From: a virus
DNA: 33,294 bases
Strand: one strand, 5' to 3'
Virus record (IMG/VR): IMGVR_UViG_3300030329_000080
Coordinates: 1-33,294 of that record
Shown here: positions 6,933 to 28,488 of the stretch, one piece after another
How the letters are laid out: every line of letters starts with the position of its first letter
How positions within the stretch are numbered: the stretch's first letter is position 1
Translations under genes and position numbers: made by a program
The notes under the pieces: model-generated
Databases searched by the model: none
What the model was told of the DNA's origin: nothing
Seen by the model: the letters and a program-made list of their open reading frames with translations, nothing else

Positions 6933-6969
6933 AACTTTTTTATAATTTTTTTTTTAAATTTTTTTCTAC

Positions 6970-9317: not shown

Positions 9318-9516
9318 ATGCTCTAAGACAAGCAAATAAACATTATATATTATATATCCAAACACACTTAAAACGCTTTAAAACTAATATTTATTTTTTA
9401 GTTTATGTTAGTTAAAAATTAATTTATTATTATTGATGTGTTGGCTTTTTTTCTTTATTCAGACAAAAAAAAAGATAAAAAAGTATAAAAAGAATAGATA
9501 AAACCCAAACTAAAAC

Positions 9517-9922: not shown

Positions 9923-10342
9923 ATGAAAGAAGATAACAAAGCATTAGGTGGAGAGGCATTAAAGAAGAAAGCATGGTCTAGTGGAAAAATAGATGAGCAT
10001 TATAATAAAACAGATAAAGTATTAGAGCCAAAGAACACAGAAGTTAGAAGAGTTGCTAAGATGACTAGGAAGTCATTAGCCTATGCACTAGAAGGACAAC
10101 CGGTAAAAATTAAAATGGCTCTTGATATTTTATTTGATGAAGACCCACGTAGTTACATTGATGCTATAGCCAAACTAATGAACTATGCTTTACCAAAATT
10201 ATCTGCAACAGAAATTAAGAAAGATTCAGACACGCAAATAGAAATTAAGTTGAGTGAAGGCACAACTCTTGATGACATTAAACAACAAATAAGAGGACTT
10301 GAAGAAGCAGAAGATATAGATTACACAGAACTAGATGACTAA
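9923..10342 (+). CDS. terS: Putative terminase small subunit (139 aa)
   Basis: Lies immediately upstream of terL and overlaps it by 8 nt. ATG 9923 is preferred to the TTG at 9884 because the predicted -7 box ends at 9875. Assignment is by position only. Confidence 0.5.
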   Translation: MKEDNKALGGEALKKKAWSSGKIDEHYNKTDKVLEPKNTEVRRVAKMTRKSLAYALEGQPVKIKMALDILFDEDPRSYIDAIAKLMNYALPKLSATEIKKDSDTQIEIKLSEGTTLDDIKQQIRGLEEAEDIDYTELDD

Positions 10343-11777
10343 TAAAAAAGCACTGAAGTTTGCTCTTAATAAGAAACTATGTGAGATGAGTTTCTATGAG
10401 TTCTTTAAAAAGGCTTGGCACGTTGTAGAACCTGCAGTACCTCTATCCACTAATTGGCATCATAAATATATTTGCGATACACTACAAGCAGAGTGCGAAA
10501 GAATAATAGAACAAAAACCAAAAACAAAAGACATAATTATTAACGTACCCTTTCGTAGTACAAAGTCTTTAATAGTAACTGTTATGTTTCCAGTATGGGC
10601 TTGGATAAAATCACCAAAACTTAGATTTATAACCTCATCATATTCAGCAACACTATCGATTGAACTAGCAACAAAATCCAGAGATATAATATTTAGTGAT
10701 TGGTTTAAACAAAGGTGGGGAAATGTTTTTCACATTAAGAAAGACCAAAACCTAAAAGAGAGATACGAAAATAATTATATTGGAATGAGAAGAGCAACAT
10801 CTGTTGGTGGTACTGTTACAGGACAGGGTGGTGACTTCCTAATAGTAGATGACCCCTTATCACCGCAAATGGCTAACTCTGCAACCGAAAGAGATAATGC
10901 AAATGAGTGGTATCGTACTACATTTTATTCTCGTTTGAATCAAGCACATATTGGAGTTAGAATAATTATTATGCAGAGAGTACACGAAGAAGATTTAACT
11001 GGTTTTTTGTTAGGAACAAATACAAGACTAAACTACAAACATATATGTATACCTGCAACAAATGAGAATGGTAATATAAAACCAAAATCATTAGAGAAGT
11101 TCTACAATAAAGAAAATGGTTTGTTCTGGCAAGATAGATTTAGCAAAGAAGTATTAGATGATTATAAAAGTGCTTTAGGTAGTTATGGATATGCTGGACA
11201 ACTACAACAAACACCAACACCCCTAGATAGTGGTATGATACATTCAAGTTGGTTTAGAGTAGATAGGTATAGAGTAGAAGATGCAACAGTAAACTTTGTT
11301 ATAGACCCTGCATATACTGCAAACCAAAAAAACGACCCCTCTGCGTTATTAGCATATACATATAAAGACAACAAGTGGCAAATAGTAGATTGTGTTAATG
11401 TACATAAAGAATTTCCAGAGTTGGTTAAGTTTATACCGCAGTGGGTACAAAAAAATGGCTACACAAATAGAAGTAGAATATATGTAGAACCAAAAGCATC
11501 TGGTAAATCTATTGTGCAAACATTAATTAGAGAAACAGGATTAAACGTAAAAGAAGATAAGCCACCAACAAAAGATAAGGTAGCAAGAGTAGCAGATGTA
11601 AGTGCATCACTAGAAAGCGGTAGAGTTAGTTTACTAAATGGAGATTGGAACAGAGAATTTCTTGACCAACTGTCAAGGTTTCCATCTGCAAAGCATGATG
11701 ACATGGTAGATTGTTTAGTGATGGCTATAAACAAAGAAATTTGGAGTGGAAGTGGTAAGGTAGTATTTTTTAATTAA
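10335..11777 (+). CDS. terL: Terminase large subunit (480 aa)
   Basis: ATPase motifs VPFRSTKS (Walker A-like) and DFLIVDD (Walker B). C-terminal RNaseH-like nuclease acidic motifs VIDPAY and KHDDMVDC. Confidence 0.9.
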   Translation: MTNKKALKFALNKKLCEMSFYEFFKKAWHVVEPAVPLSTNWHHKYICDTLQAECERIIEQKPKTKDIIINVPFRSTKSLIVTVMFPVWAWIKSPKLRFITSSYSATLSIELATKSRDIIFSDWFKQRWGNVFHIKKDQNLKERYENNYIGMRRATSVGGTVTGQGGDFLIVDDPLSPQMANSATERDNANEWYRTTFYSRLNQAHIGVRIIIMQRVHEEDLTGFLLGTNTRLNYKHICIPATNENGNIKPKSLEKFYNKENGLFWQDRFSKEVLDDYKSALGSYGYAGQLQQTPTPLDSGMIHSSWFRVDRYRVEDATVNFVIDPAYTANQKNDPSALLAYTYKDNKWQIVDCVNVHKEFPELVKFIPQWVQKNGYTNRSRIYVEPKASGKSIVQTLIRETGLNVKEDKPPTKDKVARVADVSASLESGRVSLLNGDWNREFLDQLSRFPSAKHDDMVDCLVMAINKEIWSGSGKVVFFN

Positions 11778-11834: not shown

Positions 11835-11862
11835 CATTGTTTTGAAAAATTATCAAAAAATA

Positions 11863-12297
11863 ATGAAAGCAAGAGAAATAAACTATTTAGATGATAAACA
11901 TAAGAGCATAGTTGAAGATTACATAGTTAAAGTAAAAAAAGTTATGTATTTCTCAACTGACAACTGTGCTTATGGTAAATATCATTCGTTTATTGAGTTG
12001 ATGGATTCGGTTTATTTATATTCTAATAATTTTTATGACAGAATGTTAAAAGATGAAGATACTGAAATAATTTCTGAATTTTTATTCATAATTCCAAATA
12101 TGATGTTCTATACAACTGTTGGTTTTTTAACTGCATTAAGAAATGACAAAAACCTTATACAGATTACATTAAGTATAGACAATATAGCAAGAATAACTGA
12201 AGATGCTACAAGCGAGTTGGCAGATGTGCTTATAGACAAAGAAGAAAAGAAGAAAATACTAAAAGAATTAGAAACTTTACATTTAAGCAAAAATTAA
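11863..12297 (+). CDS. Hypothetical protein (144 aa)
   Basis: ATG 11863 is preferred to the TTG at 11842, which would lie at or before the predicted transcription start. Confidence 0.55.
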   Translation: MKAREINYLDDKHKSIVEDYIVKVKKVMYFSTDNCAYGKYHSFIELMDSVYLYSNNFYDRMLKDEDTEIISEFLFIIPNMMFYTTVGFLTALRNDKNLIQITLSIDNIARITEDATSELADVLIDKEEKKKILKELETLHLSKN

Positions 12298-12307
12298 TAA
12301 TATTATT

Positions 12308-12988
12308 ATGGTAGAAATAAAAATTCAAGACACAACTTATGAAGTTCCAACAAAATGGAAAGACATAACACTTAACTGGTGGTGTGGACTATACACAATC
12401 ATCAACAAGTATAACAAAAGAGATGAGGAAGGTAATGTAATAGAAGCAGAACATACTGAGGTGCAAACACTACAATTAAACAGAGATATATTTATGTATC
12501 TAACAGGTGTAAATGCAAACGATATGAAAATGCTAGATATGGAAAGTGTAAACGCAGCAGTGGGTACAGTAGGGGAACTATTACAAGAATACAAGCCTCA
12601 AGGAATAGATAGGTTTGAGTTTGAGGGAGAAACTTATTTTTTTCCAAAAGAATTTTTAAAAAGAAGTACATTTGGTGATTACATTGAATCAACACACTTA
12701 GAAAGTACGATAAAGATAATGAAGCATGGTAGATTTGATGTGTTACCAGAACAGATGGCAATACTATGTAGAAGAGCAGGTGAGGAATATAATGATGATG
12801 AGATACCCCAAAAATCTGATAAGTTTAAAGAACTCACAATGGATATAGTTTGGGAGTTCAGTTTTTTTTTGACAATGCAAAGCGTAAAATTAACAAGGAC
12901 TTTCCAAATGTTTTTGGGCAAAACAGAAGAGGAGGTGGAGGCGGCAAAAACCGAGTTTCTACAGTTGGACTCTACAACAAATTCATAA
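12308..12988 (+). CDS. Putative tail assembly chaperone-like protein, zero-frame product (226 aa)
   Basis: Carries an in-frame T_TTT_TTT slippery site with a long open -1 frame downstream, which is the G/GT-type architecture. Confidence 0.5.
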   Translation: MVEIKIQDTTYEVPTKWKDITLNWWCGLYTIINKYNKRDEEGNVIEAEHTEVQTLQLNRDIFMYLTGVNANDMKMLDMESVNAAVGTVGELLQEYKPQGIDRFEFEGETYFFPKEFLKRSTFGDYIESTHLESTIKIMKHGRFDVLPEQMAILCRRAGEEYNDDEIPQKSDKFKELTMDIVWEFSFFLTMQSVKLTRTFQMFLGKTEEEVEAAKTEFLQLDSTTNS

Positions 12989-13188
12989 GACCATATGGTT
13001 GGTTGAATAGTTTGTATATGGTGGCAGAGAAAGGAATATTTAAGATGGATGGACATAACGATATAGATAGTGTTAAAAATACTGACCTATATAAAGTATT
13101 AACTTACTTGAGTTGGCAAAGTGCTAAAAATGATTATGAAATTGCTGTTCAAGAAAAGATACATAACAAAAATAATATAACATTGTAA
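12308..13188 (+). CDS. Predicted -1 frameshift fusion product (about 293 aa: 187 zero-frame codons plus 106 -1-frame codons)
   Basis: After slippage at 12862-12868, reading resumes at 12868 as FDNAKRK... and ends at the stop 13186-13188. Confidence 0.4.
12862..12870 (+). promoter_or_regulatory. T9 run containing the -1 slippery heptamer T_TTT_TTT (12862-12868)
   Basis: Zero-frame codons agT TTT TTT; the -1 frame is open from 12850 to 13188. Confidence 0.55.
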
Positions 13189-13190
13189 AA

Positions 13191-14330
13191 ATGGCAATAA
13201 CAAGATTAACAGATATAATAACAGTATTCGAGAGCAAGTGGACTTATGGTGATGTGAAGTTTGGCTATGAAAGCGAAATAAATCAAGACCATGATGCTAA
13301 ATATCCTTTAATGCTAATACAGCCACCAGCATCAATAATACCAGAAATATATAATGGTAGAGAAGAGTATGAGTTTGAAATAAACTTTTATAACTTATAT
13401 TCTCAAGCAGCACAATCAGTAGTTACTCTACAAAAAAGATGGGATAACTTACAAGACTTAGCAAACGAGTGGCTAGATATGGTTTTAAAAAACTATCAAG
13501 ACAATACAGTAGAGGCTTACTTAAATGATGAAAGCATAGAAATAGAAAGAGTAAAAGAAGTTGCAAATGATAGATTAGTGCAAATAAAACTAACATTTAC
13601 TATGAGTGCATTTACAAAATGCTTTAGACCAGTTTCTAATTATCCATCAGATTATTCTGATTTAGTTGTTTGGTTAAAAGCAGACAGTGGTGTAACCTTT
13701 GATATACCAACAAAAAGAGTGAGTGCTTGGGCAGACCAATCTGGTAATGGCAATGGTGCGGCACAGGCAACTACTGCAAACCAACCTTTAAGATATGGTT
13801 ATGATGGTGCTAATGATAAGGCATATATTAATTTTGATGGCACAAATGATGTATTGACATCAACAAGTAACAATCCAATATCTGCAAATTCATTTACTAT
13901 GTTTATGGTGGCAAAGCAACATACATCACACGCAGGTAAAAATCCTGTCTTTGGATATAGTAGTCCTGACGCTAATGTAGTAATGGGTTTTAATGATAAT
14001 AAAGTTTATGGATATATAAATGATGCAGGTTCAAATGAAGCGTTATTTAATGGAGGTGTTGCAAGTAATTATAATGTTTTTAGGATGCAGTTTATAGGTG
14101 GTACTGGTACTTTAAGAACACAATTAAATGGAGGTGCGATTAGTAGTGATAGTTTAACTTGGACAGACACTATTGTTTTTAATGAAGCAAGTTATACTAT
14201 ATCTAAATACCGAACAAGTGATTTTGGTAAAGTAAATATAGCAGAGGTAATAGTTTATAATAGGTCATTGCAAGAAGCAGAAATTTCAAAAATCAATGAC
14301 TACTTAAATAAAAAATTTAAAATATATTAA
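13191..14330 (+). CDS. Virion protein with a C-terminal LamG / concanavalin-like lectin domain (379 aa)
   Basis: LVVWLKADSGVTFD...VSAWADQSGNGNGAAQATTANQPL...INFDGTNDVL is the typical Laminin_G_3 signature. Confidence 0.7.
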   Translation: MAITRLTDIITVFESKWTYGDVKFGYESEINQDHDAKYPLMLIQPPASIIPEIYNGREEYEFEINFYNLYSQAAQSVVTLQKRWDNLQDLANEWLDMVLKNYQDNTVEAYLNDESIEIERVKEVANDRLVQIKLTFTMSAFTKCFRPVSNYPSDYSDLVVWLKADSGVTFDIPTKRVSAWADQSGNGNGAAQATTANQPLRYGYDGANDKAYINFDGTNDVLTSTSNNPISANSFTMFMVAKQHTSHAGKNPVFGYSSPDANVVMGFNDNKVYGYINDAGSNEALFNGGVASNYNVFRMQFIGGTGTLRTQLNGGAISSDSLTWTDTIVFNEASYTISKYRTSDFGKVNIAEVIVYNRSLQEAEISKINDYLNKKFKIY

Positions 14331-14332
14331 TA

Positions 14333-16123
14333 ATGAGTACGAGTATTAATGGAACAATTAGTTGGGGTATACAGTTGCAAAATGAAGATGTTAATTCAAA
14401 TTTAGCAGCGTTAAGTTGGACAGGTAGAAGAAATTTTCTTGTAAGTGCTAATAGTCCTTTAAGGTTTCAAATCATATGGACAAGCACTGGAGTAACAGAA
14501 GATACAGAACCATCAAAAGCAAATTGGACAGGAGGCTCTTCACTTACAAATGGAAATGGAGATGTGGTAAATATAGTTTTTAAAGTTTATGCTACAACTA
14601 CATCACCAGCAAGTAGTACGCTAAGTGATTACGAATATCTAGGTGCAATAAAAAAATCAAGAGATATACCAAACAGAAGATATAACACGCAGACACCACC
14701 ACTAGACCATAGGTTTACTGTAGACTTAGCACCTCTTGTAAGAGATAAACTGTCTTATAGTTTAGTGCCAATAAACAAAGGAACTTGGCAAAGTCATGAG
14801 TGGGGAGGCATGAATGGTGGTCTAGCAATGCAAGATAATGTAACAGAGCCTGTAAGTTTTTACAATGTCACACCTAATGGTTGTATAAGAACAATAAAAG
14901 TTCTTGCTTGTCCAGAAGTTATTAATGGTGAGGGAACAGTAATTGAGGCAGATGGATATAATGGTGGTAAAGGATATTTAGCCTTATCTAAACTTACAAG
15001 AATCATAAACAGTGTTGCTCAGTATGGGGAAGATAGTTTAGTCAATAGAGGTACAGACGCTAAATTTGTTTGGGAGAGGTTTAATAATTACAGGTTTTTA
15101 TCTAGGTGTAAAAATGAAATACAAAGTAATACTGTATCAGATGCACCATATATGAAACCAGCAAGGCTAGATGAACAAGCAGAATGGTTATATTGGTATA
15201 TGTATACTGGTGAATATACAAGCGGAGGTGTTAGATATGCAATTCAAGGTATGGGAATGAAAGTAGAGACTTTTGACAGTATATCTGGTAGTGTACAAGA
15301 CACTTTTTATATAAAAGATTTTGAAGATACTGCTCGTTTTAATGGTGCTAACATACATGATGACCAAGAAAGAATGTTCGTTCAAAATGTTTCACCATCA
15401 TTTATAAACAATGCAGATGCTTTTCAGGTGACTAGCAGTACTGGTGCTTGGGCAACTTATACTGGAGATAGAATAACAAGTGATGTTGCTTTGTATAGAG
15501 TTTCTGTAAATAAAGTTTATGATGATGCAGATACTGTTGTAAGGGTTTCTCGTTATAGATATTATATTATAGACAAAGAAGATGAAAAGTTGCCATATGG
15601 ATTTGTAAGGTTTCACTGGTTAAACACTATGGGAGGTATAGATAGTTATACAGCAAAAAGAAACATAACAGAAGGATATAGTATAAGTAAAGATATAATA
15701 GAAAGAAAAAGTGTAGATAGAATGTGGAAGCAAAATGATGCTCAAGCAACAAGTGGTGCTGCAATACCTAACTCTACCTATGTTAATGACACAATGAGAG
15801 GTGGTAATCAATATAAGGGTGGAAGAGAAGTTTTAAATATAAATGCAGAAAAAAGAAATAGTGTTTACACTGAGCCTTTAAGCAATCAAGTTTCTAAGTG
15901 GCTAAAAGAAATTACTATGTCGCCTAATGTTTGGATAGAGGTAGATAGTGATGCTACTGCAGAAAACAATACTACAAATCCATATCTTAGACCATCAACC
16001 AAAGGTTATATGCCAGTTATTATAACTAATAGTGACATTGAAACTGTTAATGAAGAGCAAGGTCTTGTTAGGTTTAACTTAGAATATATATTCTCACATA
16101 AAGTACAAACACAAAGAAATTAA
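14333..16123 (+). CDS. Large virion (tail/baseplate) protein, function unknown (596 aa)
   Basis: Size, beta-rich S/T/N/G composition, and tight coupling within the tail block. Confidence 0.55.
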   Translation: MSTSINGTISWGIQLQNEDVNSNLAALSWTGRRNFLVSANSPLRFQIIWTSTGVTEDTEPSKANWTGGSSLTNGNGDVVNIVFKVYATTTSPASSTLSDYEYLGAIKKSRDIPNRRYNTQTPPLDHRFTVDLAPLVRDKLSYSLVPINKGTWQSHEWGGMNGGLAMQDNVTEPVSFYNVTPNGCIRTIKVLACPEVINGEGTVIEADGYNGGKGYLALSKLTRIINSVAQYGEDSLVNRGTDAKFVWERFNNYRFLSRCKNEIQSNTVSDAPYMKPARLDEQAEWLYWYMYTGEYTSGGVRYAIQGMGMKVETFDSISGSVQDTFYIKDFEDTARFNGANIHDDQERMFVQNVSPSFINNADAFQVTSSTGAWATYTGDRITSDVALYRVSVNKVYDDADTVVRVSRYRYYIIDKEDEKLPYGFVRFHWLNTMGGIDSYTAKRNITEGYSISKDIIERKSVDRMWKQNDAQATSGAAIPNSTYVNDTMRGGNQYKGGREVLNINAEKRNSVYTEPLSNQVSKWLKEITMSPNVWIEVDSDATAENNTTNPYLRPSTKGYMPVIITNSDIETVNEEQGLVRFNLEYIFSHKVQTQRN

Positions 16124-16126
16124 TAT

Positions 16127-19100
16127 ATGTCGATAAGAATAGAGTTATTAGATTTTAATTATAATGATGCTGAAAGAAATTTAATTGATGTTAATACAGG
16201 TGTTGTTGGTAGTGGATTTACTGTTGATAGTAAGTTTGGTGCTACTTGGGATAGCACAGGTATAACAGACTCAGTAAAATTTTTATCTAATATTCAAAAC
16301 ACAAATCTAGTTGTAGGTAAAGAGTATTTTGTTTCTTTTAAACTTAGTGGATATAGTGGAACTGGTAACATGGGCTTGTCTACAAGTAGTGGTGTTTCTG
16401 GCAATGCAAGACTTAGTGGTAATGGCACTCATAGCGAAACATTTACTGCAACCGACTCTGGTCAAATAGATTTATTTGGTAGAAAAACAAATAATGGTAC
16501 TTTTGAAAAGGTAAAGTTATTTAGATTAGATGCTATAAATTGGGGTCAAAGTGTGGCAGGACATTTAGAATTAACAAGACATGATGAATCTCCTTTTGCT
16601 TTAACTTATCAAATAAGCGATATAAAAAACATAACATCTACAAGTGGACACTATAGTAAAACATTTAAAGTTCCTGCTTCAAAACACAACAACTCTCTTT
16701 TAAAAAATCTGTTTATACCAAACATGACTTTTGACAATGATGTAACTGGACTCAAGCCTTGTAGAATAGTTTTTGATGGTGTAAACTCTATAGAGGGATT
16801 ACTACAAGTAACAGGGGCAGGAGGCTATGGGGAAAACGCATCTTATTATAATTGTGTCTTTTATGGCAACAATATGTCTTGGGGTTCTTTTATAGCAGAA
16901 AAATTACTAAAAGATGTTAATTGGGGTACAAATGGAGAGAGTCTTGCTTATAACAAAACAACAATAACTGCAACTTGGGCAGATGAAGATTGTACATCTT
17001 CTGATTCTTTTTTAGTTTATCCTATAACATCTTATGGCGACTACAATCCTAATGGAATAGAACATACAATACAGTTGTTAGGAACTGCAGGGGAAAATGG
17101 TCATGGTGCAGGTGCAAATGCTTATTATGGCAATGATACTGGTGGTGCTAGTTATGGCACACCACCTCCAGTAGCAGATTGGAGACCAGCAATATTTGTT
17201 AAAAGCACTTTAGAGCAAATATTTAAAGATGCAGGTGGATATTCTATAAAGTCTAATTTTATGGACACAAGCACATTTAAAAAATTAGTATGGCTTCTAC
17301 CTAACTTTAAGTATAATAATCCAGATGATAGATATGCTAGATTTGGTTTTGAAAGTGAGTTTGCTAGTGATGCCTCTTTACCTGCAGATGAGGTTTTAGG
17401 TAATAATTTAAACAACATACCTGGTGAAGACCATAATTATCAATTTGATGAAGAGCCTATAGAATTTGGAACTGATGGAGGTGCAAATGGATTTAATATA
17501 CTTACTACTGATGCTAGTAATGAAGTTGTATATACAAATTCTGCAGGTAACTTTAGTTCTGTTACAGTTAAAGAGTATGGATATTATAATGTAAGAGTGT
17601 CTGATTTTAACATAGATATTTCAAACCCTTTAATTGATTTAGGACAAACTGGTAGTTTTTCAACTCCTGATACAACACCACTAGAGGCTTGTTTTGTTAA
17701 AAGATTTAGTTTAGCAGTACAAGTAAGAACACAGGGAGAAACGCATTTTGCAAACAGGATTAGAGCAGAATTAAGCACAACTGAGTACGAGAGAGTTACA
17801 GGTGCAGGTACTTATGATTTTGTTTTTAGTGCTAATAATGCATTAGGAGACCTTTCTGGTACACTTACTTTTGAACCTATAGACGAGAGCATATGGCTTA
17901 ATAAAGATGATATAGTTAGGCTAACATTAAAAGTGCAATGGGAACGTAGGCATTGTGGAGGTGGTATTTGTAATGCAGACTACAAATTTACATCAACACC
18001 TAAACCTTTTGGTGCTAGATTTGATTTAGCCTTTAATCCTGTACCTGTAGAGTATGGGCAAACCTATGACCTTAAAGATGTTATAAATCCAGACTACAAA
18101 CAAAAAGATTTTGTAAAAGGTGTTGTTCATGCTTTTAATTTAAAATTAAGCACAGACCCTAGTTCTAAGCAAATAACAATAGAACCATTTAATGATTTTT
18201 ATAAAACATTTAGTGATGCTGTAGATTGGACACAGAAGTTAGATAGAAATAAAGAAATAACTGACAAGTTTTTAAAAACAGATATAAAAAGAAATTTAAT
18301 TTTTAAATACAAGCAAGACTCTAACGACAAAAATGCTGAATATTTTTCTAATCAGTATTTTGAAGGTATTAAGGATGTATACCCATACAAAGAAGAATTA
18401 GATACTATATTTGAAGATGGCGATAGTATTTTTGAAAACCCATTCTTTGCAGGAACTTTAAATCACCTAGACTTAGACACATACGACCCATTTAATATTT
18501 TTAATATGTTGTACGCTAATCCTCAAACGACATACAGTGCTTGTTTATGGCAAGAGCATTATAATTCTGGCAGTTCGCCAAGACCAGAAAAGGGTTATAA
18601 CTTTCAACCAAGATTATTGTATTGGAATAAATTATCTCCAGATGTTTCTACAGCAGGTTATAATAAAATAGCATTAGTGCAAACTTGGGCAGAAGAAAGA
18701 GAGGCGATTGTAGCCTGTTCTAACCAAACTCTAGTTTCTGGTACTTATCTAAGTAATGTGTTTCCTCAAGCAACATCATATGACCCTGAAAGCACAAGTT
18801 GCCCTAACCTTTGTTATGGTAATATTTGGGTTAGAAACTTCGACCATTCTAATGGAACATTTGCTGATGCAGTAGCACAAAAAGGATTATTCGATACTTA
18901 CTATAGGCAAATGGTAGAGATGTTAAAACAAAAACCAAGACTAAGAGAAGTTTTTGTTGATTTAAAAGTTGGTGATGTTTTAAACTTAGATTTTCAAAAA
19001 TTAATATACATAGATGGTGTTTACTGGAGACTAAATAAAGTTGTAGATTATATGCCAGATTCTAACATGCCAACTAAGGTAGAATTGTTAGAGTGGTTTC

Positions 19101-19225
19101 AATTAGGTGTAAACGCATCACAAACTCCTAGATTTGCTGGTGGTATGCAGGGTGGTACAGGAGTAAGAGGTTATCTAAACAATACAGACATATATACAAA
19201 TAGTAATCCAAATCAAGGTGCATAA
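16127..19225 (+). CDS. Largest tail protein, probable host-recognition or tail-tip protein with an N-terminal CBM-like beta-sandwich (1032 aa)
   Basis: Largest ORF. N-terminal LVVGKEYFVSFKLSGYSGTG...GTFEKVKLFRLD resembles carbohydrate-binding jelly-roll modules. Confidence 0.55.
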   Translation: MSIRIELLDFNYNDAERNLIDVNTGVVGSGFTVDSKFGATWDSTGITDSVKFLSNIQNTNLVVGKEYFVSFKLSGYSGTGNMGLSTSSGVSGNARLSGNGTHSETFTATDSGQIDLFGRKTNNGTFEKVKLFRLDAINWGQSVAGHLELTRHDESPFALTYQISDIKNITSTSGHYSKTFKVPASKHNNSLLKNLFIPNMTFDNDVTGLKPCRIVFDGVNSIEGLLQVTGAGGYGENASYYNCVFYGNNMSWGSFIAEKLLKDVNWGTNGESLAYNKTTITATWADEDCTSSDSFLVYPITSYGDYNPNGIEHTIQLLGTAGENGHGAGANAYYGNDTGGASYGTPPPVADWRPAIFVKSTLEQIFKDAGGYSIKSNFMDTSTFKKLVWLLPNFKYNNPDDRYARFGFESEFASDASLPADEVLGNNLNNIPGEDHNYQFDEEPIEFGTDGGANGFNILTTDASNEVVYTNSAGNFSSVTVKEYGYYNVRVSDFNIDISNPLIDLGQTGSFSTPDTTPLEACFVKRFSLAVQVRTQGETHFANRIRAELSTTEYERVTGAGTYDFVFSANNALGDLSGTLTFEPIDESIWLNKDDIVRLTLKVQWERRHCGGGICNADYKFTSTPKPFGARFDLAFNPVPVEYGQTYDLKDVINPDYKQKDFVKGVVHAFNLKLSTDPSSKQITIEPFNDFYKTFSDAVDWTQKLDRNKEITDKFLKTDIKRNLIFKYKQDSNDKNAEYFSNQYFEGIKDVYPYKEELDTIFEDGDSIFENPFFAGTLNHLDLDTYDPFNIFNMLYANPQTTYSACLWQEHYNSGSSPRPEKGYNFQPRLLYWNKLSPDVSTAGYNKIALVQTWAEEREAIVACSNQTLVSGTYLSNVFPQATSYDPESTSCPNLCYGNIWVRNFDHSNGTFADAVAQKGLFDTYYRQMVEMLKQKPRLREVFVDLKVGDVLNLDFQKLIYIDGVYWRLNKVVDYMPDSNMPTKVELLEWFQLGVNASQTPRFAGGMQGGTGVRGYLNNTDIYTNSNPNQGA

Positions 19226-19929
19226 TGAGAGATAGAAGGCAAATATCACAAAGAGGTTTACCAAATCAAAGTGGTTTGGAGATTTTTTCATCAATAATAA
19301 CATTTGGAGGAGAGTTCTTGTCTTGGGCAAAAGTTTTTTCTTCTGCTACTTTATCTGGTGCTACATCTTATGAGACAAGCACCTCAGACCCTACACTATA
19401 TGCTGTCAATAATAGCAGACCAACAACTCCAGAAACTTGGTACTTATATTTTACAACTGGATTATCTGCACCAAGTGTACCATCTGTAACTGATGAAAAT
19501 GCCAGAAACTCAATACAACTAACAGGTAATGATTCTGGTAACATAGGTTTGTATCAGCAACTATCTGGATTAACAGTAGGAACAACTTACAAGTTCTCTG
19601 TATTTTTTCATAAAGGTAGTGCAAGTGGAACTATAACATTAGAACAGTTTGCATATGCAGGAGAAAGTGATTATTCAAGAATATTAATATCAGAAACTAC
19701 AGTACCAGCATATGAATGTGTTTTAGAGTTTACTGCTTATTCATCTAATGATGTTATACTTATAGACTTCCAATGTGCTAGTGGTGTTACTGGTGCGGTA
19801 GATATAACACAAATGTCTATTAAAGAAAAAGAAGAATACTTAGTGCCAGTAGTAATGACAGATAGCACTGGAACTGCTCATAATGTTTTACAGAGAAACT
19901 TACAGGATAATTTAAGTGATGAGGAATGA
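19225..19929 (+). CDS. Tail-associated protein with a CBM-like beta-sandwich (234 aa)
   Basis: LTVGTTYKFSVFFHKGSASGTITLEQF parallels the N-terminal module of the 1032-aa protein; taATG coupling. Confidence 0.5.
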   Translation: MRDRRQISQRGLPNQSGLEIFSSIITFGGEFLSWAKVFSSATLSGATSYETSTSDPTLYAVNNSRPTTPETWYLYFTTGLSAPSVPSVTDENARNSIQLTGNDSGNIGLYQQLSGLTVGTTYKFSVFFHKGSASGTITLEQFAYAGESDYSRILISETTVPAYECVLEFTAYSSNDVILIDFQCASGVTGAVDITQMSIKEKEEYLVPVVMTDSTGTAHNVLQRNLQDNLSDEE

Positions 19930-20426
19930 TTAAACTAAAGCACACAAATAGAACTATGCACGAGGTAGGTGATATGCTAAGGAAAGGTTTAAGGCAAGAA
20001 CTGATTGACCAAAAGCATAATGCTACTGGTAGATTGAGTAGAGGATTAAAATACCATGTAAATAAAAGAACAAATACTATGAGTGTTTTTGCATCTGTTA
20101 GTTATTGGAAGGCAGTTAATAATCCTAAGTTTGCAAAAAAACCTAATAAAAATGCTATAAAAAGTTGGGTTAGAACAAAAGGATTACCTGAAAATTCTGC
20201 AAGTGCGATATTTAAAAAACTACAAAGTTTTTATGGTAAACCATATGTGTTTTGGTCAGATGGCAATAAAATAACAAGAACAGACTTTGCAGGGCATACT
20301 GCAAGAAAATTTAGTAAAAAAGTAGCAGATAAATTAGCACCATCAATAGGTGTAGATGTGGCTAATATGATAGGAGAACAAATAAGAAAAAATAATCCAA
20401 AAGCAAATGTCGTTGAGGCATTTTAA
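19926..20426 (+). CDS. Hypothetical virion protein, weakly HK97 gp10-like (166 aa)
   Basis: HNATGRLSRGLKY resembles the dTG.L..si motif of the gp10 family; ATGA overlap with the upstream gene. Confidence 0.4.
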   Translation: MIKLKHTNRTMHEVGDMLRKGLRQELIDQKHNATGRLSRGLKYHVNKRTNTMSVFASVSYWKAVNNPKFAKKPNKNAIKSWVRTKGLPENSASAIFKKLQSFYGKPYVFWSDGNKITRTDFAGHTARKFSKKVADKLAPSIGVDVANMIGEQIRKNNPKANVVEAF

Positions 20427-20438
20427 TATATAATATAT

Positions 20439-23018
20439 ATGGCAACAAATACAGAAAAAATAGTAGTACAGGTAGTCGTACAGGGAGATAAACAGTTAGA
20501 TAAACTTGAGAAAAAAACAAAAAGCACAACGCTAGGGTTTGGCAAAATGGCTGCTGGTGTTTTGGCTGCGGTTGCTACCTTTAGAAAGGTAAATCAAGTT
20601 GTTGCAGCATCTATAAGGTCTTTTAGAGATTTTGAATTTCAAATGGCTAAAGTAAAGGCGATTACTGGTGCAAACAGAAGTGAGTTTTTACAGTTATCAA
20701 AATCTGCTCAAGATTTAGGTAGGTCTACGTTCTTTACAGCACAACAAGTTGCTGAACTACAAACTAATTATGGTAAGTTAGGATTCACTACAAAAGAAAT
20801 ATTAGATGCTCAAGAGGCTACTCTTCAATTAGCGACAGCAACAGATTCTGATTTAGGTAGAGCAGCAGTTGTGGCAGGTGCTGCGGTAAGGGGTTTCGGT
20901 TTAAATGCTAATGAAACTGCTAGGGTTACTGATGTGATGGCGAAAGCATTTACATCATCTGCATTAGACTTGGAGAAGTTCCAAACATCTATGACAAAAG
21001 TTGCACCTATTGCAAAGTCAGCAGGATTTTCTATAGAAGATACAACTGCAATTATGGCTCAGTTAGCAGATTCTGGTATAGAGGCTTCTATAGCAGGTAC
21101 ATCTTTAAGGAATATATTACTTAAAATGCAAGACCCTAATTCAGATTTAGTAAAATCTTTTGGGAAAACTATACACTCTTTAGATGAGTTAGTACCTGCA
21201 CTTACTAAATTTAGTGAAGAGGGCGGTAGTCTTGCTGAAATTATGGAGGTTGTTGATTTAAGACAGGCGGCAGCGTTTGAACAAATGATAACCAGTAGAA
21301 AGAGAACTGTTGAGTTAAGAGATGCTTTAGTAAATGCTAAAGGTGCGGCTGCAGAAATGGCAAGAATAGTGGGAGATACATTAGAAGGTGCGTTAAAAAG
21401 GTCGCAATCTGCAACACAAGGTTTTCAAATTGTATTTATGCAAACATTTGGAGATGCTCTTAAAAACGTTATTGATGGTTTTGCTACATTAGTTAATAAG
21501 TTTACTGAATTTATAGAACTACCTATGTCTGAAACCTTAGACAACGATAGGGTTGCTATGAATAATTTATTTAAAAGTTTAGAAAAAACCAATATAAGTC
21601 AAGACACTAGAAACAGATTAATTGGTGAATTAAACTTAAAATATGGAGAATATTTACCTTTTATCATAGATGAAAAAACAAAACTTGAGGATTTGAAAAT
21701 AGCACAAAATGGTGCTAATGATGCTATGTTGAGAAGAGTAACGATAATGGCTGCTGAAGAGGCTCTAAGAGATGTTGTACAAAGAAGATTAGATAATCAA
21801 ATTGAAGCAACAAGATTAGTAAAAGAAGAAACAGAACTGCAAAATGAAAAGTTAGAAGCACAAGATGGTTCTTATAAAAGAGCAATACAAAGCAGTGGGG
21901 GTTATGACAGAACTTTAATGCGTATAACTACAAGTTTAGATGCTAATTCTAAAGCACAAGAAAAAAACAAAAAAGAAGCAGAGGAATTAGATGAAGAATA
22001 CACTGAAATTGCTAATACCGCAGCAAATTTAAAAATAAATATAGATGGTGTTACTAAATCTATAACAGGAGAGGGTGGTTCTGGAGGAGATGGTTCTGGA
22101 GGAGGTGGTGGTGGTGGTAAAGGATTGTCACAGGCTATGGCACAATCTACTATAGAAACTAGAATCCAAAATAATGAATTACAAAACTACATAAATATAA
22201 TGGGTGGAGTTATAGATAAATCTATAACATTAGAACAGGCTCAAGAACAGTTAAGACAACAAAGAATCAAAGACATAGAAGAAACATTAGCCAATGCACC
22301 TCTTATAATAACCGATTATCAAACAAGATTAAAACTTGAAAAACAGTTAATTGATTTAAAACTTCAAGGATTAACAGATGAGGAGAAAAAAAGAAAAGAG
22401 CAGATAGGACAAATGCAACAGGTAGGACAACAACTTATAACTTTAGCAGGAAATGATGAAAAATATCAAAAGGTAAGAGAGTTAGGTGTTAGAATATCTG
22501 CAGCAGCAGCATTAGCAAATAACGCGGAAGCATTGTCTTTACAAATGAAAGGTTTATCTGCAGATTTAGCATTAGGTTTCCCAGCCAACTTAATAGCAGT
22601 AGCATCTACACTAGCATTATTATTAAGTATGAAACAAAACTTTCAAGTTTTAGCAAGAGGTGAGCAGTTTGCAAATGGAGGTATGGTGCAAGGCAAATCA
22701 CACGCACAAGGTGGAGAAAAGTTTGCAGTAGGTGGTAGAGTAGTAGAGTTAGAGGGTGGTGAAGCAGTAATAAATAAAAGAAGTACAGCAATGTTTAGAA
22801 ACCAATTATCTGCTATGAACGCAGCAGGTGGTGGTGTTAAGTTTGCTGATGGTGGTTTATTAAATATGCCATCATTTACACAACAACAGTTTAATGCACT
22901 TGGTCAAACACAAATGATGGGTGCTATGCAGGGAGGAAGAAAAGTAGTAGTAGTTGAGGCGGATATTACAAATGCTCAAGATAAAGTAAGTGTAATTGAA
23001 TCTCAAGCAACATTATAA
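20439..23018 (+). CDS. Tail tape measure protein (859 aa)
   Basis: TP901-type core (FEFQMAKVKAITGA..., LGRSTFFTAQQVAE, AKAFTSSALDLEKF, SIAGTSLRNILLKM), long coiled-coil middle, Gly run, hydrophobic segment. Confidence 0.85.
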   Translation: MATNTEKIVVQVVVQGDKQLDKLEKKTKSTTLGFGKMAAGVLAAVATFRKVNQVVAASIRSFRDFEFQMAKVKAITGANRSEFLQLSKSAQDLGRSTFFTAQQVAELQTNYGKLGFTTKEILDAQEATLQLATATDSDLGRAAVVAGAAVRGFGLNANETARVTDVMAKAFTSSALDLEKFQTSMTKVAPIAKSAGFSIEDTTAIMAQLADSGIEASIAGTSLRNILLKMQDPNSDLVKSFGKTIHSLDELVPALTKFSEEGGSLAEIMEVVDLRQAAAFEQMITSRKRTVELRDALVNAKGAAAEMARIVGDTLEGALKRSQSATQGFQIVFMQTFGDALKNVIDGFATLVNKFTEFIELPMSETLDNDRVAMNNLFKSLEKTNISQDTRNRLIGELNLKYGEYLPFIIDEKTKLEDLKIAQNGANDAMLRRVTIMAAEEALRDVVQRRLDNQIEATRLVKEETELQNEKLEAQDGSYKRAIQSSGGYDRTLMRITTSLDANSKAQEKNKKEAEELDEEYTEIANTAANLKINIDGVTKSITGEGGSGGDGSGGGGGGGKGLSQAMAQSTIETRIQNNELQNYINIMGGVIDKSITLEQAQEQLRQQRIKDIEETLANAPLIITDYQTRLKLEKQLIDLKLQGLTDEEKKRKEQIGQMQQVGQQLITLAGNDEKYQKVRELGVRISAAAALANNAEALSLQMKGLSADLALGFPANLIAVASTLALLLSMKQNFQVLARGEQFANGGMVQGKSHAQGGEKFAVGGRVVELEGGEAVINKRSTAMFRNQLSAMNAAGGGVKFADGGLLNMPSFTQQQFNALGQTQMMGAMQGGRKVVVVEADITNAQDKVSVIESQATL

Positions 23019-23030
23019 AAAAACAAAACA

Positions 23031-23258
23031 ATGGAAGAAATTTTAATATTAGTAGAAAGTTATGGATTACCTTTAGTATTATTGCTAGGTGCATTATACG
23101 CATTATATAGATTTTTTGTTTTTAGTCTATATGAAGTTAAAAATGAATTTGGAAAAAGACACGAAGATAATGCAAAGGCAATGTCAGAACTAAAGATTGC
23201 AGTAGCAGAACTGAAAGAAAAGATTAGCACAGTGCTAGATTTTGTTAAACGTAAATAA
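23031..23258 (+). CDS. Small membrane protein with a coiled-coil tail (75 aa)
   Basis: TM segment GLPLVLLLGALYALYRFFVF. Confidence 0.55.
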   Translation: MEEILILVESYGLPLVLLLGALYALYRFFVFSLYEVKNEFGKRHEDNAKAMSELKIAVAELKEKISTVLDFVKRK

Positions 23259-23267
23259 TATAAACAT

Positions 23268-23462
23268 ATGTTTGTTAATAAAAAAACCAAATTAGAAAGG
23301 TTAAGTATATGTAAAAGTTGTAATATGTACCGAAACTTTATGTTACTTAAAAGACCAAAAATAGACTTAGGTGCAAGATGTGCAGAATGTAAGTGTTTCT
23401 TAGATGCAAAGACTTCTCTCACAAAAGAATTTTTTGGCAAATGTCCTAAAAATAAATGGTAA
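23268..23462 (+). CDS. Small Cys-rich (zinc-ribbon-like) protein (64 aa)
   Basis: CKSC ... CAEC-KC ... C. Confidence 0.5.
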   Translation: MFVNKKTKLERLSICKSCNMYRNFMLLKRPKIDLGARCAECKCFLDAKTSLTKEFFGKCPKNKW

Positions 23463-23472
23463 AATTAAACAT

Positions 23473-23778
23473 ATGAATTTTAAAGAAATCGCACAAAACT
23501 ACGACAAATCAAAAAGAAAGATGATGTCAAACGCTATTGTGAAGAACAGAAAGTATATGACTAACTTCGCAAAATATGATGCAGAATCATTAAACTTAAT
23601 GTATGCAGAATGGCATTTATTATTTCCAACACACAAGCAAGATATAAATTGCTCTAGTTGTAGAAAAGCAGTAAACAAGTTCTGGGAAACAATGTTAGAA
23701 GAGTGGATAGAATTAGAACAAACTCCAAAAGCAAAAACAAAAAAAACCAGTGGCTCAAAAAAAACAAAGGCAAAATAA
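23473..23778 (+). CDS. Hypothetical protein with a Lys-rich tail (101 aa)
   Basis: ATG 23473 is preferred to the upstream track start at 23404, which overlaps the previous ORF. Confidence 0.5.
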   Translation: MNFKEIAQNYDKSKRKMMSNAIVKNRKYMTNFAKYDAESLNLMYAEWHLLFPTHKQDINCSSCRKAVNKFWETMLEEWIELEQTPKAKTKKTSGSKKTKAK

Positions 23779-24082
23779 TATAGATATAGTTTACGACTAT
23801 ATAGAAACTCTTGGTGTAGAGTTAGAAAAAAGATTTGGAGATTGTCCTACTTGTAAAGATATGGTTAGACATCTTGTAGAGAGAGGAATTATAGAGCCAA
23901 AGAGAGTTAGAAACTATATGATTATTACTGACTTTGATAGAATGTTAGTACACAACGAGGGAAACAGAACTTATACATTTATGGATTTGTCTATTAAGTA
24001 CGAAATAAGCGAAAGTCAAGCACAAAATATCGTATACAAAGAAAGAAAAAAGTCTATTCCTAGCAATAACATTACTTGTTAA
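23750..24082 (+). CDS. Mor-like / sigma-region-4-like HTH protein, candidate late transcription activator (110 aa)
   Basis: RVRNYMIITDFDRMLVHNEGNRTYTFMDLSIKYEISESQAQNIVYKE fits the Mor pattern R...I...F...g.n...LA.kY.lS....iY. GTG start. Confidence 0.4.
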   Translation: MAQKKQRQNNIDIVYDYIETLGVELEKRFGDCPTCKDMVRHLVERGIIEPKRVRNYMIITDFDRMLVHNEGNRTYTFMDLSIKYEISESQAQNIVYKERKKSIPSNNITC

Positions 24083-24139: not shown

Positions 24140-25174
24140 ATGAAAGGACAATGGTATAATATTCAAAACAAGGCTAGTGAAACTGCTGACATCTACATCT
24201 TTGATGAGATAGGTATGTATGGAGTAACAGCACAAGATTTTATTGGAGAAATAAAAGAATTAAAAAATACACCAATCAATTTACGCATAAACAGTTTAGG
24301 TGGAGATGTGTTTAATGGTATGGCTATTTATAATGTTATTAAAAAAAGAGAAGCAAAAACTACAGTTTATATTGAAGGTATAGCAGCGAGTATTGCAACT
24401 ATCATTGCGTTAGGTGCTGATGAGGTTGTAATGTCTGAAAACTCTTTATTTATGATACATAACGCTTGGGGTGGTACAATGGGAGATGCAAAAGATATGA
24501 GAAAATCTGCAGAAACTCTTGAAAAAATCTCAACAGAACTTACAGAAATCTATATGAAAAAGACAGGATTGTCTTATGATGTAGTTTCAAATATGATGGA
24601 TGAAGAAACTTGGTTAAACTCAGAAGAGGCTTATGAACTAGGTTTTGTAGACACTATATCTGATGCTATTAAGATTGCTGCAAAGTATGATGTTTCTAAG
24701 TTTAAGAACATCACCAATGAACAAATACAAAACAAATTAAATATTAACATAAATAACAGAAAAATGACTAACGAGTTAAAAGAATGGTTCAACAACAAAG
24801 TTGAAGAAATCGTTACTGCTGTAAAAGGTGATGTAAAAGTTTCTAATGATGTTGCTGAACAAACAGCAATTACTGTTAATTTAGGAGATAATGAAGAAAT
24901 AAAAAATAAGATTTCTGAGTTTGAAACTAATAATACAGAATTATCAAACAAAATCTCATTGTTAGAAGAAGAGTTAGCAACTGCAAAAGGAACTAACGAA
25001 ACTTTGACTAATGAAATTGAAGCGTTAAACGCAAAAATAAACAAGTCAGATGCTAAAGGAACTGAAATTGAAACTGATGGTGACCCTGCGGTAGTTGAAA
25101 ACAAAAAAGAAGATGCTAATGCAGGATTCTATAATGCAATGGCTGACAGAATAAGAAATAGATTTAATAATTAA
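24140..25174 (+). CDS. ClpP-family (S14) prohead protease fused to a C-terminal coiled-coil scaffold-like domain (344 aa)
   Basis: INSLGGDV, GIAASIATIIALGAD and FMIHNAWGG (Ser/His motifs), then about 150 aa of E/K/N-rich heptads. Confidence 0.85.
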   Translation: MKGQWYNIQNKASETADIYIFDEIGMYGVTAQDFIGEIKELKNTPINLRINSLGGDVFNGMAIYNVIKKREAKTTVYIEGIAASIATIIALGADEVVMSENSLFMIHNAWGGTMGDAKDMRKSAETLEKISTELTEIYMKKTGLSYDVVSNMMDEETWLNSEEAYELGFVDTISDAIKIAAKYDVSKFKNITNEQIQNKLNININNRKMTNELKEWFNNKVEEIVTAVKGDVKVSNDVAEQTAITVNLGDNEEIKNKISEFETNNTELSNKISLLEEELATAKGTNETLTNEIEALNAKINKSDAKGTEIETDGDPAVVENKKEDANAGFYNAMADRIRNRFNN

Positions 25175-25188
25175 AAAAATAAAATAAA

Positions 25189-26208
25189 ATGGCAACAGGA
25201 AACGTAGCAAATAAAGGAACTTTCGCAACTTACTCAGGGGCGAACTTAAATGAGATTTTTTATGAGCCAGTATTTAGAAGTGATGATATTATGCGTAACT
25301 ATAGAGTTATTCCTAATGTAAAGCATAAAATGAATGTGTTTACTTCTGCTGCTCTAACAAAAATAGTAACAAAACAAACTGCTTGTAGTGCAAGTAGTCA
25401 AGACCCAGTAGTAGATTTTAATATTGATGAGAAAACAATTACTGCAGGAAGAATGAGAGTTGCTCTTGAGCAATGCTCTAAAGAGTTTTATGACACTTAC
25501 ATTGAAGAAATGTACAGAAATGGTGTAGATGTAAATAATCTTGAAGGCACACAATTAGCAGATGCGATTGTAAATCGTGCTGTAAAAGGTATTGCACAGG
25601 ATGTAGTAAGATTAGCATGGGGTGGAGATAGCACAACTGCTAACTATGACCAAATGTCTGGTTGGATGAAATTAATGGGAGATGATGCAACTGTATTGGC
25701 AGCAAGAACTGAGTTTAGTGCGGCAGCACCTACAGCACCAACAGCAGCAGAGGCTCTTTCTTTAATAAGAAATATGTATGACAATGCACCGGCAGCACTA
25801 CAACAAGTTCCTGCAGCAGATAAGAAAATGTTTGTAACTCCAAAGACTTACAATGCTTACTTACAAAACCTAGAAGGTACTTCTGCAGATTTAGCAATAA
25901 CTAACCAACAAGATGGATTGTTAGTTGTTAAGTTTAGAGGTGTTGAATTAGTACCTATGTATGAGTGGGATACTATATTAGCAGACACTGACCCAGCATT
26001 ATTCTTAAGAGGTGGTGTTAATGGAACAGAAGGTGCTTGTTACTGCGCAGTTGAGAACTTAATAATAGGTTCTGATGTAACAGACCCAGAAGGTTCATTT
26101 AAAGTATTCTATGATGATTTAGAAGAAAAAATGTTCTTTAGAGGATATTTCAAGTTAGGTGTACAATTTCTGTACCCTTCACTTGTACAATGGGGAATTT
26201 TCTACTAA
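25189..26208 (+). CDS. Major capsid protein, HK97-fold type (339 aa)
   Basis: Directly follows the protease-scaffold gene; size and composition fit; followed by a stable hairpin. Confidence 0.75.
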   Translation: MATGNVANKGTFATYSGANLNEIFYEPVFRSDDIMRNYRVIPNVKHKMNVFTSAALTKIVTKQTACSASSQDPVVDFNIDEKTITAGRMRVALEQCSKEFYDTYIEEMYRNGVDVNNLEGTQLADAIVNRAVKGIAQDVVRLAWGGDSTTANYDQMSGWMKLMGDDATVLAARTEFSAAAPTAPTAAEALSLIRNMYDNAPAALQQVPAADKKMFVTPKTYNAYLQNLEGTSADLAITNQQDGLLVVKFRGVELVPMYEWDTILADTDPALFLRGGVNGTEGACYCAVENLIIGSDVTDPEGSFKVFYDDLEEKMFFRGYFKLGVQFLYPSLVQWGIFY

Positions 26209-27011: not shown

Positions 27012-27224
27012 ATGGCAGAATATAAAGCAATAAAAAAAGTAACAGTTTATCATGGTGCTAACAGTGTTATTAGAACAGCATCAGCAACTCAAGAAGAATT
27101 AGCATACGCTTATGAAGAGTTAGGAATGATTAATGAAATACAAAAATTAACTACAAACAGTAAAGATGAGCCAAAGAAAGCAACCAAAAACAAAAAGTCA
27201 ATTAAAAACAAATCAAAAGACTAA
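27012..27224 (+). CDS. Hypothetical protein (70 aa)
   Basis: ATG 27012 sits in the conserved tacaattATG context and is preferred to the ATG at 26955. Confidence 0.45.
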   Translation: MAEYKAIKKVTVYHGANSVIRTASATQEELAYAYEELGMINEIQKLTTNSKDEPKKATKNKKSIKNKSKD

Positions 27225-28488
27225 TACTTTTGAGTTTGGTGTTTTTAACTTAGCGATACCAGAGCATATAGAAGAACCTTTGGACTTATCAAGAGTAAGG
27301 ACTAAGTTTATACCTTTTGGTACTAACAATCTTTTTCCTCAATATTTAGCAGAATTAAAACGTAAATCTTCTACTCACAGAAGTGTACTTGCACAAAAAA
27401 CTATTTTTACAAGTGGTGCTAAATTTGTAACAAACAACGAAGATTTAAAACAATATATTAAAGATGTCAATGCAGATGGCGAGAATTTAAGAGATGTCTT
27501 TAAAAAACTAGCAGATGATTACTATACATTTGGTAACGCATACATTGAGGGTGTATTGTATGATGGTGGACTAAATCTATATCATGTAGATGCCACTACT
27601 GTTAGAATGTCAAAAAACAAGAAGGAAGTTTATATACACCCAGATTGGGCAAAGTATAACACAATGAAAGACAAACTTACAATACTTCCTATTTATCCTA
27701 ATGTAAGAAGCAATAGGTTTGTATTACAATTCAAAGATTATGAGCCTACATTTACTTTCTATGGTTTACCAGATTACGTTGCTGCATTAGAGCATATTGC
27801 GGTAGACTATGAAATAGGTAAATGGAATCACACTAAATTTAAAAATGGTTTCCAACCATCTGCAATAGTAGAGATTAGTGGTGATATGGGAGAAGAGGAG
27901 GCTAAGAAATTAGTTAGAGAGGCACAGAAAAAGTTTGTCGGAGATGGTAATAATGGTAAGATAATGTTTATAGTAAAAAATGGTGACACTTCACCTGCTA
28001 ATGTAAATATTATAAAAGATGACCAAGAAGGAAGTTGGATTGACTTGCAAAAAATAACAGACCAAAACATTGTAACTGCACACAGATGGCAACCATCTTT
28101 AAGTGGTTTAGTTTCTAGTGGTAAAATGAATAATACAGGAAGTGAGATTAGAATTGCTTACGATTTAGCAATGACTACTGTTATTAAAGATACTTCTGAT
28201 ATGCTACTTACAGGTATTAAGAATTTATTATTTAAGGAGTTAGGATATTTACCAGAAGATTTACTTATACAGTACGAGCCACCAATTAGTTTTGCTACTC
28301 AAATAGACCCTTCTAAAGTTCTTACTATAAACGAGCAAAGAAGAATGTTAGATGAAGATTTACCAATGCTAGAAGAGGGCAATATGTTTATCACTGATAG
28401 AGAACAGATTATAGTAACAAGAGATGATGAAGATGGTGCGGATGAAGATGAAAGTCTACAAGTAACTGAAACTAATACAACAAACTAA
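27166..28488 (+). CDS. Portal protein (440 aa)
   Basis: Size. The N-terminal region FIPFGTNNLFPQYLAELKRKSSTHRSVLAQKTIFTSGAKF...YYTFGNAYIEGV resembles PBSX/HK97-type portals. Acidic C-terminal tail. Confidence 0.75.
   Translation: MSQRKQPKTKSQLKTNQKTNTFEFGVFNLAIPEHIEEPLDLSRVRTKFIPFGTNNLFPQYLAELKRKSSTHRSVLAQKTIFTSGAKFVTNNEDLKQYIKDVNADGENLRDVFKKLADDYYTFGNAYIEGVLYDGGLNLYHVDATTVRMSKNKKEVYIHPDWAKYNTMKDKLTILPIYPNVRSNRFVLQFKDYEPTFTFYGLPDYVAALEHIAVDYEIGKWNHTKFKNGFQPSAIVEISGDMGEEEAKKLVREAQKKFVGDGNNGKIMFIVKNGDTSPANVNIIKDDQEGSWIDLQKITDQNIVTAHRWQPSLSGLVSSGKMNNTGSEIRIAYDLAMTTVIKDTSDMLLTGIKNLLFKELGYLPEDLLIQYEPPISFATQIDPSKVLTINEQRRMLDEDLPMLEEGNMFITDREQIIVTRDDEDGADEDESLQVTETNTTN

Follow-up and report, generated by a model that had tools for sequence, protein, structure and literature searches.

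The window analysed here, positions 1 to 33,294 of IMG/VR virus record IMGVR_UViG_3300030329_000080, is a tailed-phage genome or most of one, and the gene under study occupies positions 12308-13188 of its plus strand. Two genes upstream lies the terminase large subunit gene (10335-11777, plus strand; phrog_38, E = 5.8e-97), and between the two is a gene for an unknown protein of 144 or 151 aa with no recognisable family (11842-12297). Downstream are genes for a LamG-like protein (13191-14330), for proteins of 596, 1032, 234, and 166 aa (14333-20426), and for a tape-measure-like protein of the PhageMin_Tail type (20439-23018, plus strand), followed by a head protease (24140-25174), a probable capsid protein (25189-26208), a portal (27166-28488), and holin- and endolysin-like genes near the 3' end. 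The initial annotation had placed a frameshift gene pair behind terL and ahead of the LamG protein, with the tape measure gene at 20439, and this arrangement holds: 7.45 kb and five genes (13191-20426) separate the recoded gene from the tape measure gene.

The zero-frame open reading frame (12308-12988, plus strand) encodes an acidic short product of 226 aa (pI 4.66) and contains a run of nine T residues at 12862-12870 (plus strand), with a G on either side, that is read as AGT TTT TTT TTG. As expected of a ribosomal -1 site, the run includes an in-phase X_XXY_YYZ heptamer, T_TTT_TTT, at 12862-12868. No stop interrupts the -1 frame from 12829 on; its earliest start-type codon is a TTG at 12850, and it ends in the stop codon at 13186-13188. 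A -1 shift on the run would join 187 residues to the 106 encoded by the -1 segment (12868-13188, plus strand; 106 codons plus stop, pI 9.7), giving a long product of 293 aa (pI 5.44) with the junction WEFSFFFDNAKRK. The -1 segment includes a Gly-rich linker and a C-terminal helical domain with a PYGWLNSLY motif, and it overlaps the end of the short form over 39 zero-frame codons (12871-12988, plus strand). The perfect heptamer within a T9 run, the -1 frame open from 12850, and the pair of 226-aa and roughly 293-aa products had all been reported from the initial reading and are confirmed by the coordinates, the two products (187 + 106 residues for the long one) on comparative grounds.

A heptamer on its own means little in DNA of 31% G+C, where it is not rare, and 83 in-phase heptamers were counted across 34 plus-strand open reading frames of the window. 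The -1 run behind these 83 has a median of about 5 codons and the runner-up reaches 30, compared with 106 codons at the T9 site. The T9 at 12862 is also the sole homopolymer of at least nine bases placed within a confident gene of the window, a T10 at 6946 and an A9 at 9465 both being placed outside confident genes. A second in-phase T_TTT_TTT (T7) occurs in the same gene at 12637-12643; the -1 frame behind it is shut after 11 codons, it is found in few relatives only (L001, L026, L039, and L043), and it is probably incidental.

We found 716 relatives of the short protein in marine metagenomes, many of these relatives from Tara Oceans. Of the 120 that were listed, nearly all have 226 or 218 aa, and no fused form is present among these 120 close protein clusters. 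We retrieved 65 IMG/VR loci, 61 of which contain the whole gene. In every one of the 61, the run is exactly T9 in an unchanged phase and the -1 frame is open for 99-109 codons, and this applies to relatives as remote as 42% protein identity. Conservation of the -1 peptide begins at the T-run (FFFDxAKRKINKDFPNVFG ... PYGWLNSLY ... LYKVLTYLSW); it does not include the Met at 13018, where relatives have L, I, or D. The T9 shift site is invariant in 48 unique related sequences, including its first T, a purely synonymous site of AGT or GCT that is retained across changes between these two codons. Synonymous sites just 5' of the run (12850-12861) are frozen as well, with TTC in 48/48 and GAG in 44/48 unique sequences despite the A/T-rich codon usage, which suggests that the sequence 5' of the shift site is constrained at the nucleotide level.

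Entropy by codon phase was computed upstream of the run, in the overlap, and downstream of the zero-frame stop. Upstream of the run, the third position of the zero frame has an entropy of 0.81, against 0.13-0.27 at the others; in the overlap (12871-12988), all three positions are suppressed (0.38/0.22/0.26); downstream of the zero-frame stop, it is the third position of the -1 frame that reaches 0.81. The zero-frame tail beyond the T9 is itself conserved among relatives. The passage of the phase signal from the zero frame to the -1 frame, together with constraint on all positions between the two, indicates a frame switch with a dual-coding overlap, and both frames of the 39-codon overlap appear to be under purifying selection. 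As judged by comparative sequence, the recoding site and both predicted products are under selection.

An exhaustive HMMER search yielded 389 cluster representatives, and the family thus defined, 389 clusters at 50% identity, comes mostly from marine metagenomes. Among the representatives that cover the junction, 103 end 0-82 residues (median, 29) past it, with FF at the junction in 99 of these 103 short forms, and approximately 7-9 run on into the C-terminal domain as a single open reading frame. Single-ORF homologues (P0229, P0233, P0180, and L081) align through the junction. In the fused genes the T-runs are interrupted (TCT TTC TTT TTT GAT, encoding SFFFD; CTG TTT TTT CTA; AGC TTC TTC GAA), so these fusions are not assembly artefacts, and the existence of such homologues proves that a long protein with the predicted junction (SFFFD) is a real entity. 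Recoding by a -1 shift to give 226-aa and 293-aa products, as the initial annotation had proposed, is therefore supported by the conservation of the T9, the frame switch, the dual coding, and the single-ORF homologues.

The T9 recurs in eight further diverged contigs. One of them, L076, has it in the window's own codon phase; the other seven (L073, L074, L075, L077, L079, L080, and P12024S), which range from 32 to 48% G+C, carry the exact T9 in the other phase (GTT or CTT, then TTT TTT TNN). No T8 or T10 was seen at the shift site among the T9 contigs of either phase. One lineage at 28% identity (L065/L078) has a T7 only, in the phase that a heptamer requires, and no shifting lineage, this T7-only one included, lacks an in-phase heptamer. 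L076 (NZQM01000015.1) and L077 (CAYUOS010000119.1) were the sole matches in the genome collection and are contigs in the bins of a Parvibaculum MAG and of a Rikenellaceae MAG, respectively. L076 has genes for close homologues of the terminase subunits and the tail-module proteins arranged as in the window and looks like a phage contig carried into its bin, and the same is suspected of L077; host assignment from these two bins was rejected, as neither is reliable.

The family also has cultured members. In Nonlabens phage P12024S (NC_018271, L072), gp38 (175 aa) and gp39 (55 aa) at 23136-23830 are the same recoded gene, with the T9 at 23578-23586 (CTT TTT TTT TAT) and the family C-terminal motif in the -1 extension; P12024L has the same arrangement. 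GenBank lists P12024S gp38 and gp39 as separate hypothetical proteins with no frameshift annotated, and our literature search returned no described frameshift in P12024S or in chaperones of Flavobacteriia phages. A tblastn search of 50,697 phage records with the window fusion gave no match, and with the P12024S version it matched P12024S and P12024L only. The P12024S gene resembles that of the window in its T9, its -1 extension, its C-terminal motif, and its location between terL, which it follows closely (immediately, in P12024S), and the large tail genes; it differs in the codon phase of the T-run and in its shorter protein, a 231-aa fusion.

With regard to mechanism, usual decoding would produce the acidic 226-aa protein, and some expression events would shift to the -1 frame on the U9 and produce a 293-aa protein that shares the first 187 residues and is extended by the Gly-rich linker and the basic helical C-terminal domain. 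By a ribosomal route, two tRNA-Phe would slip in tandem on U_UUU_UUU; by a polymerase route, which would be equally viable, one extra U would be inserted in the mRNA. Either would lead to the identical protein (...SFFFD...), and a downstream RNA stimulator would not be needed. We found no stimulatory RNA structure downstream of the T9 (fold z-score, -0.16), and the consensus RNA structure at the site has -2.2 kcal/mol and no covariation. GGGAG upstream of the site, considered as a Shine-Dalgarno-like stimulator, encodes a conserved W-E. A stimulator is not obligatory for ribosomal -1 frameshifting; phage P2 E/E+E' lacks one and shifts on TTTTTTG without any RNA structure (PMC3091744).

The same two products could arise at the level of transcription, with RNA polymerase adding one U at the T9 and ordinary translation then giving the 293 aa, and we regard this as a serious possibility, if somewhat short of an even one. 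A homopolymer of about nine or more bases in the coding strand, as programmed transcriptional slippage requires, is present, and nine is both the length of the RNA:DNA hybrid and that of efficient bacterial polymerase slippage (PMC5009743). The exact T9 is kept in the window clade (phase 2) and in the seven other-phase contigs (phase 1) across their whole span of G+C content, without a T8 or T10; the RNA stimulator is missing; and in an unrelated family, that of Croceibacter phage P2559Y, the short and long forms likewise part at a long homopolymer (A10/A11). The retention of exactly nine in two codon phases would fit polymerase slippage at least as well as ribosomal slippage. Against polymerase slippage, the L065/L078 lineage keeps only a T7, placed exactly in the phase of the ribosomal heptamer, and the flanking T residues may also owe their retention to the hydrophobic residues that they encode (V/L-F-F-F/L), which even the non-shifting fusions conserve. 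An in-phase heptamer is inherent in any T9, so that ribosomal and polymerase slippage are inseparable at the level of sequence, and both may contribute. We can only infer the level of the shift, ribosome or polymerase, and its efficiency.

Known slippage systems offer parallels for either route. Transcriptional slippage on a run of nine is established for dnaX of Thermus thermophilus, which, like Shigella flexneri mxiE, resembles the window gene in a homopolymer of exactly nine bases and in a long product that needs the equivalent of one added nucleotide and no other signal (PMC5009743); these are, however, cellular genes of unrelated function, and slippage at the window T9 is only predicted. 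The resemblance to P2 gpE/gpE+E' lies in the T-rich slippery sequence, T_TTT_TTG there and TTTTTTG at 12865-12871 here, and in the lack of a downstream RNA structure (PMC3091744). The P2 genes differ in their location between the tail tube and tape measure genes, their far smaller products (91 and 142 aa), and their other host, and no homology to the window gene was detected.

For the 293-aa form, an AlphaFold model based on 134 family sequences has high confidence, which extends through the C-terminal domain (pLDDT, 88.5; pTM, 0.83); a single-sequence model (pLDDT, 44) was useless. In the model, residues 1-198 form an N-terminal domain of mixed alpha/beta structure with two beta-hairpins, residues 205-225, approximately, are a disordered Gly-rich linker, and the C-terminal module is helical and packs against the N-terminal domain. 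The model puts the shift site within the final helix of the N-terminal domain rather than between domains. Both frames must therefore encode a similar amphipathic continuation (FFLTMQSVKLTRTFQMFLG versus FFFDNAKRKINKDFPNVFG), which accounts for the constraint on the overlap.

Searches for relatives of known function returned little. The window protein matched nothing in Pfam, PHROG, or NCBIfam, so that the similarity to chaperone families that the initial annotation had in view was not found for it, and scans of the fused and diverged homologues and of 134 family representatives against the same three collections gave no usable family. Among the 134 family members, one each had a weak match to phrog_344 (E = 1.3e-4) and phrog_1442 (E = 4e-3), both chaperone PHROGs, and no Pfam match was consistent. 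A profile search against PDB sequences returned nothing, and Foldseek of the model against the PDB gave no match (best E = 1.9). Foldseek against BFVD gave 45 matches below 1e-3, all to uncharacterised proteins of phages, Flavobacterium phage 6H and P12024S among them, the P12024S protein being a family member by fold (BFVD I6R9M9); two further models labelled as chaperones matched weakly (E = 0.02-0.05; TM, 0.35-0.39). By these searches the protein family is new and so far unannotated, and recoding itself is of a known kind in phages.

Our results lead us to consider it somewhat better than an even bet that the gene at 12308-13188 is a recoded gene whose two forms act as a G/GT-like tail assembly chaperone pair of a new family; for the chaperone function taken by itself, we infer a chance of about one half. 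Xu, Hendrix, and Duda (2004) reportedly described the -1 frameshift as conserved in the tail assembly chaperones of long-tailed phages. Comparative evidence points to the corresponding architecture here, two proteins with a common N-terminus made from overlapping open reading frames, the -1 shift falling late in the first of them. The position of the gene at the start of a block of large genes of tail type makes the chaperone reading plausible, as do the acidic short form, the basic extension, and the lack of a competing heptamer. The gene is always followed, on its own strand, by several large tail-type genes. This block ends in a PhageMin_Tail protein in the window and L068, in a homologue of the window tape-measure-like protein in L078, and in a large protein of similar size in L079 and P12024S. 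In no case is the gene adjacent to the tape measure gene, and the separation is common to the window, L068, L079, and P12024S. No other in-phase heptamer with a -1 extension occurs in the tail block, and a rival G/GT pair just before the tape measure gene (19225-19929/19926-20426) was rejected, as it has no slippery site with a -1 extension.

The chaperone reading of the initial annotation is thus plausible as far as the tail block, the charge pattern, and the -1 architecture are concerned, and falls short in position and family homology. The gene does not lie between a major tail protein gene and the tape measure gene, as G/GT genes do. No major tail (tube) protein was identified in the window, including next to the recoded gene; the upstream 151-aa protein was tested as a tail tube, and the homologue search gave close relatives only, with no domains. 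Similarity by sequence or profile to the chaperone families (Pfam Phage_TAC_*, PHROG, NCBIfam) is likewise missing, the direct links to chaperones being the two weak Foldseek and the two weak PHROG matches, the latter from the 134 family members. The G/GT label is plausible, and the gene is a candidate member of that class only.

In lambda, gpG has approximately 140 aa and gpGT approximately 279 aa, and both G and GT are needed. The window gene resembles this pair in total size (293 aa against approximately 279 aa), in its location in the tail block upstream of the tape measure gene on the same strand, and in an acidic common part with a basic extension. It differs in standing 7.45 kb and five genes off rather than between the major tail and tape measure genes, in lacking sequence or profile similarity, in a longer common part (approximately 190 aa against approximately 140 aa for gpG), in a T9 homopolymer in place of G_GGA_AAG, and in a 39-codon overlap constrained in both frames. 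Moreover, several lineages of the family make the fused long form only.

The main rival to a chaperone function is that the recoding is real and its products are two isoforms of a virion or other morphogenetic protein, for which the T7 capsid proteins 10A/10B, or tail proteins with C-terminal domains added by frameshifting, would be models. This would be in line with the distance from the tape measure gene, the lack of demonstrable homology to chaperone families, the lineages that have the long form alone, and the shift site within the last helix of the N-terminal domain rather than at a domain boundary. However, tube, capsid, connector, and baseplate folds are usually recognisable, and the present fold matches no known virion protein in the PDB; in addition, the sole annotated matches, though weak, are chaperones, and the charge pattern, sizes, and -1 architecture are like those of G/GT. 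We therefore consider the two-isoform explanation rather unlikely.

Two explanations that do without recoding fare far worse. An independent small gene, read without any shift from the ATG at 13018 or the TTG at 12850, is very improbable: start-type codons do exist in the -1 frame, and GenBank has P12024S gp39 as a separate 55-aa open reading frame, but the Met at 13018 gives way to L, I, or D, the -1 peptide is conserved back to the T-run, upstream of any ATG, distant homologues are continuous fusions, and the AlphaFold model packs the C-terminal helices onto the N-terminal domain (pTM, 0.83). The 56-aa gene from ATG 13018 that the initial annotation had raised as an alternative is accordingly rejected. 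Its other alternative, a sequencing or assembly error that conceals a true T10 and a single open reading frame, hardly deserves consideration, for although homopolymers are error-prone and a tenth T would join the frames, the T9 is exact in approximately 70 independent contigs (the 61 IMG/VR loci and eight further independent contigs, from different projects) and also in a Sanger-era isolate genome, no fusion occurs among the 120 listed close protein clusters, the zero-frame tail is conserved, and the overlap is under dual-coding constraint.

Our findings add a large, abundant, and unannotated family to the conserved recoding events of tailed phages, the long product of which is systematically missed by gene callers, in the cultured Nonlabens phage P12024S as well. 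They also offer a culturable system, in a host phylum without Shine-Dalgarno pairing, in which a U9 shift at the ribosome can be set against one at the polymerase. Annotation pipelines rely on the rule that G/GT precedes the tape measure gene, and if the chaperone role is true, a location directly before that gene is not universal. With the T9 kept in two codon phases and in genomes of 31 to 48% G+C, one may speculate that it is a site of programmed polymerase slippage that would set the ratio of the two forms of a new-fold chaperone uncoupled from the tape measure and, together with the P2559Y-like A10/A11, that Bacteroidota phages generally recode tail-assembly stoichiometry transcriptionally and not ribosomally; we think this broader proposal doubtful.

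The P2559Y-type family itself (P2559Y, L066, 10647-11390; L086, 6001-6751) lies directly before a large gene, annotated as the tape measure in P2559Y and, at 1006 aa, taken as the tape measure in L086. At approximately residue 131 this family carries a long run of A: an A10 in P2559Y, which leaves one 247-aa open reading frame, and an A11 in L086, which gives a 147-aa product with the remainder in another frame. Several other short forms of this family end in ...VKKKNR, and the A-run could be a slippage-prone chaperone junction or a homopolymer assembly error. The family (gp14) is absent from the window, and hhalign of the window family against it gave a probability of 0.3%, with no detectable homology; only a short N-terminal motif is similar.

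The closest cultured terminases are those of Flavobacteriia phages of Croceibacter, Chryseobacterium, Riemerella, and Cellulophaga. In the window, a Shine-Dalgarno motif is missing from the 20 bases upstream of all 30 gene starts (0/30), and these upstream regions are A/T-rich, which would be expected with a Bacteroidota host. The host is probably a member of the Bacteroidota, and the phage is marine and probably infects Flavobacteriia.

Two A8 runs (23739-23746 and 23757-23764) follow closely on the tape measure gene, in the Lys-rich overlap of the open reading frames 23404-23778 and 23750-24082. [quoted passage not shown] The late region (9884-32429) has an unusual order, with terS, terL, the tail-type genes up to the tape measure, protease, capsid, portal, small proteins, and lysis genes in succession. 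The portal gene lies 15 kb from the terminase in the window, and the order of blocks is as in P12024S.
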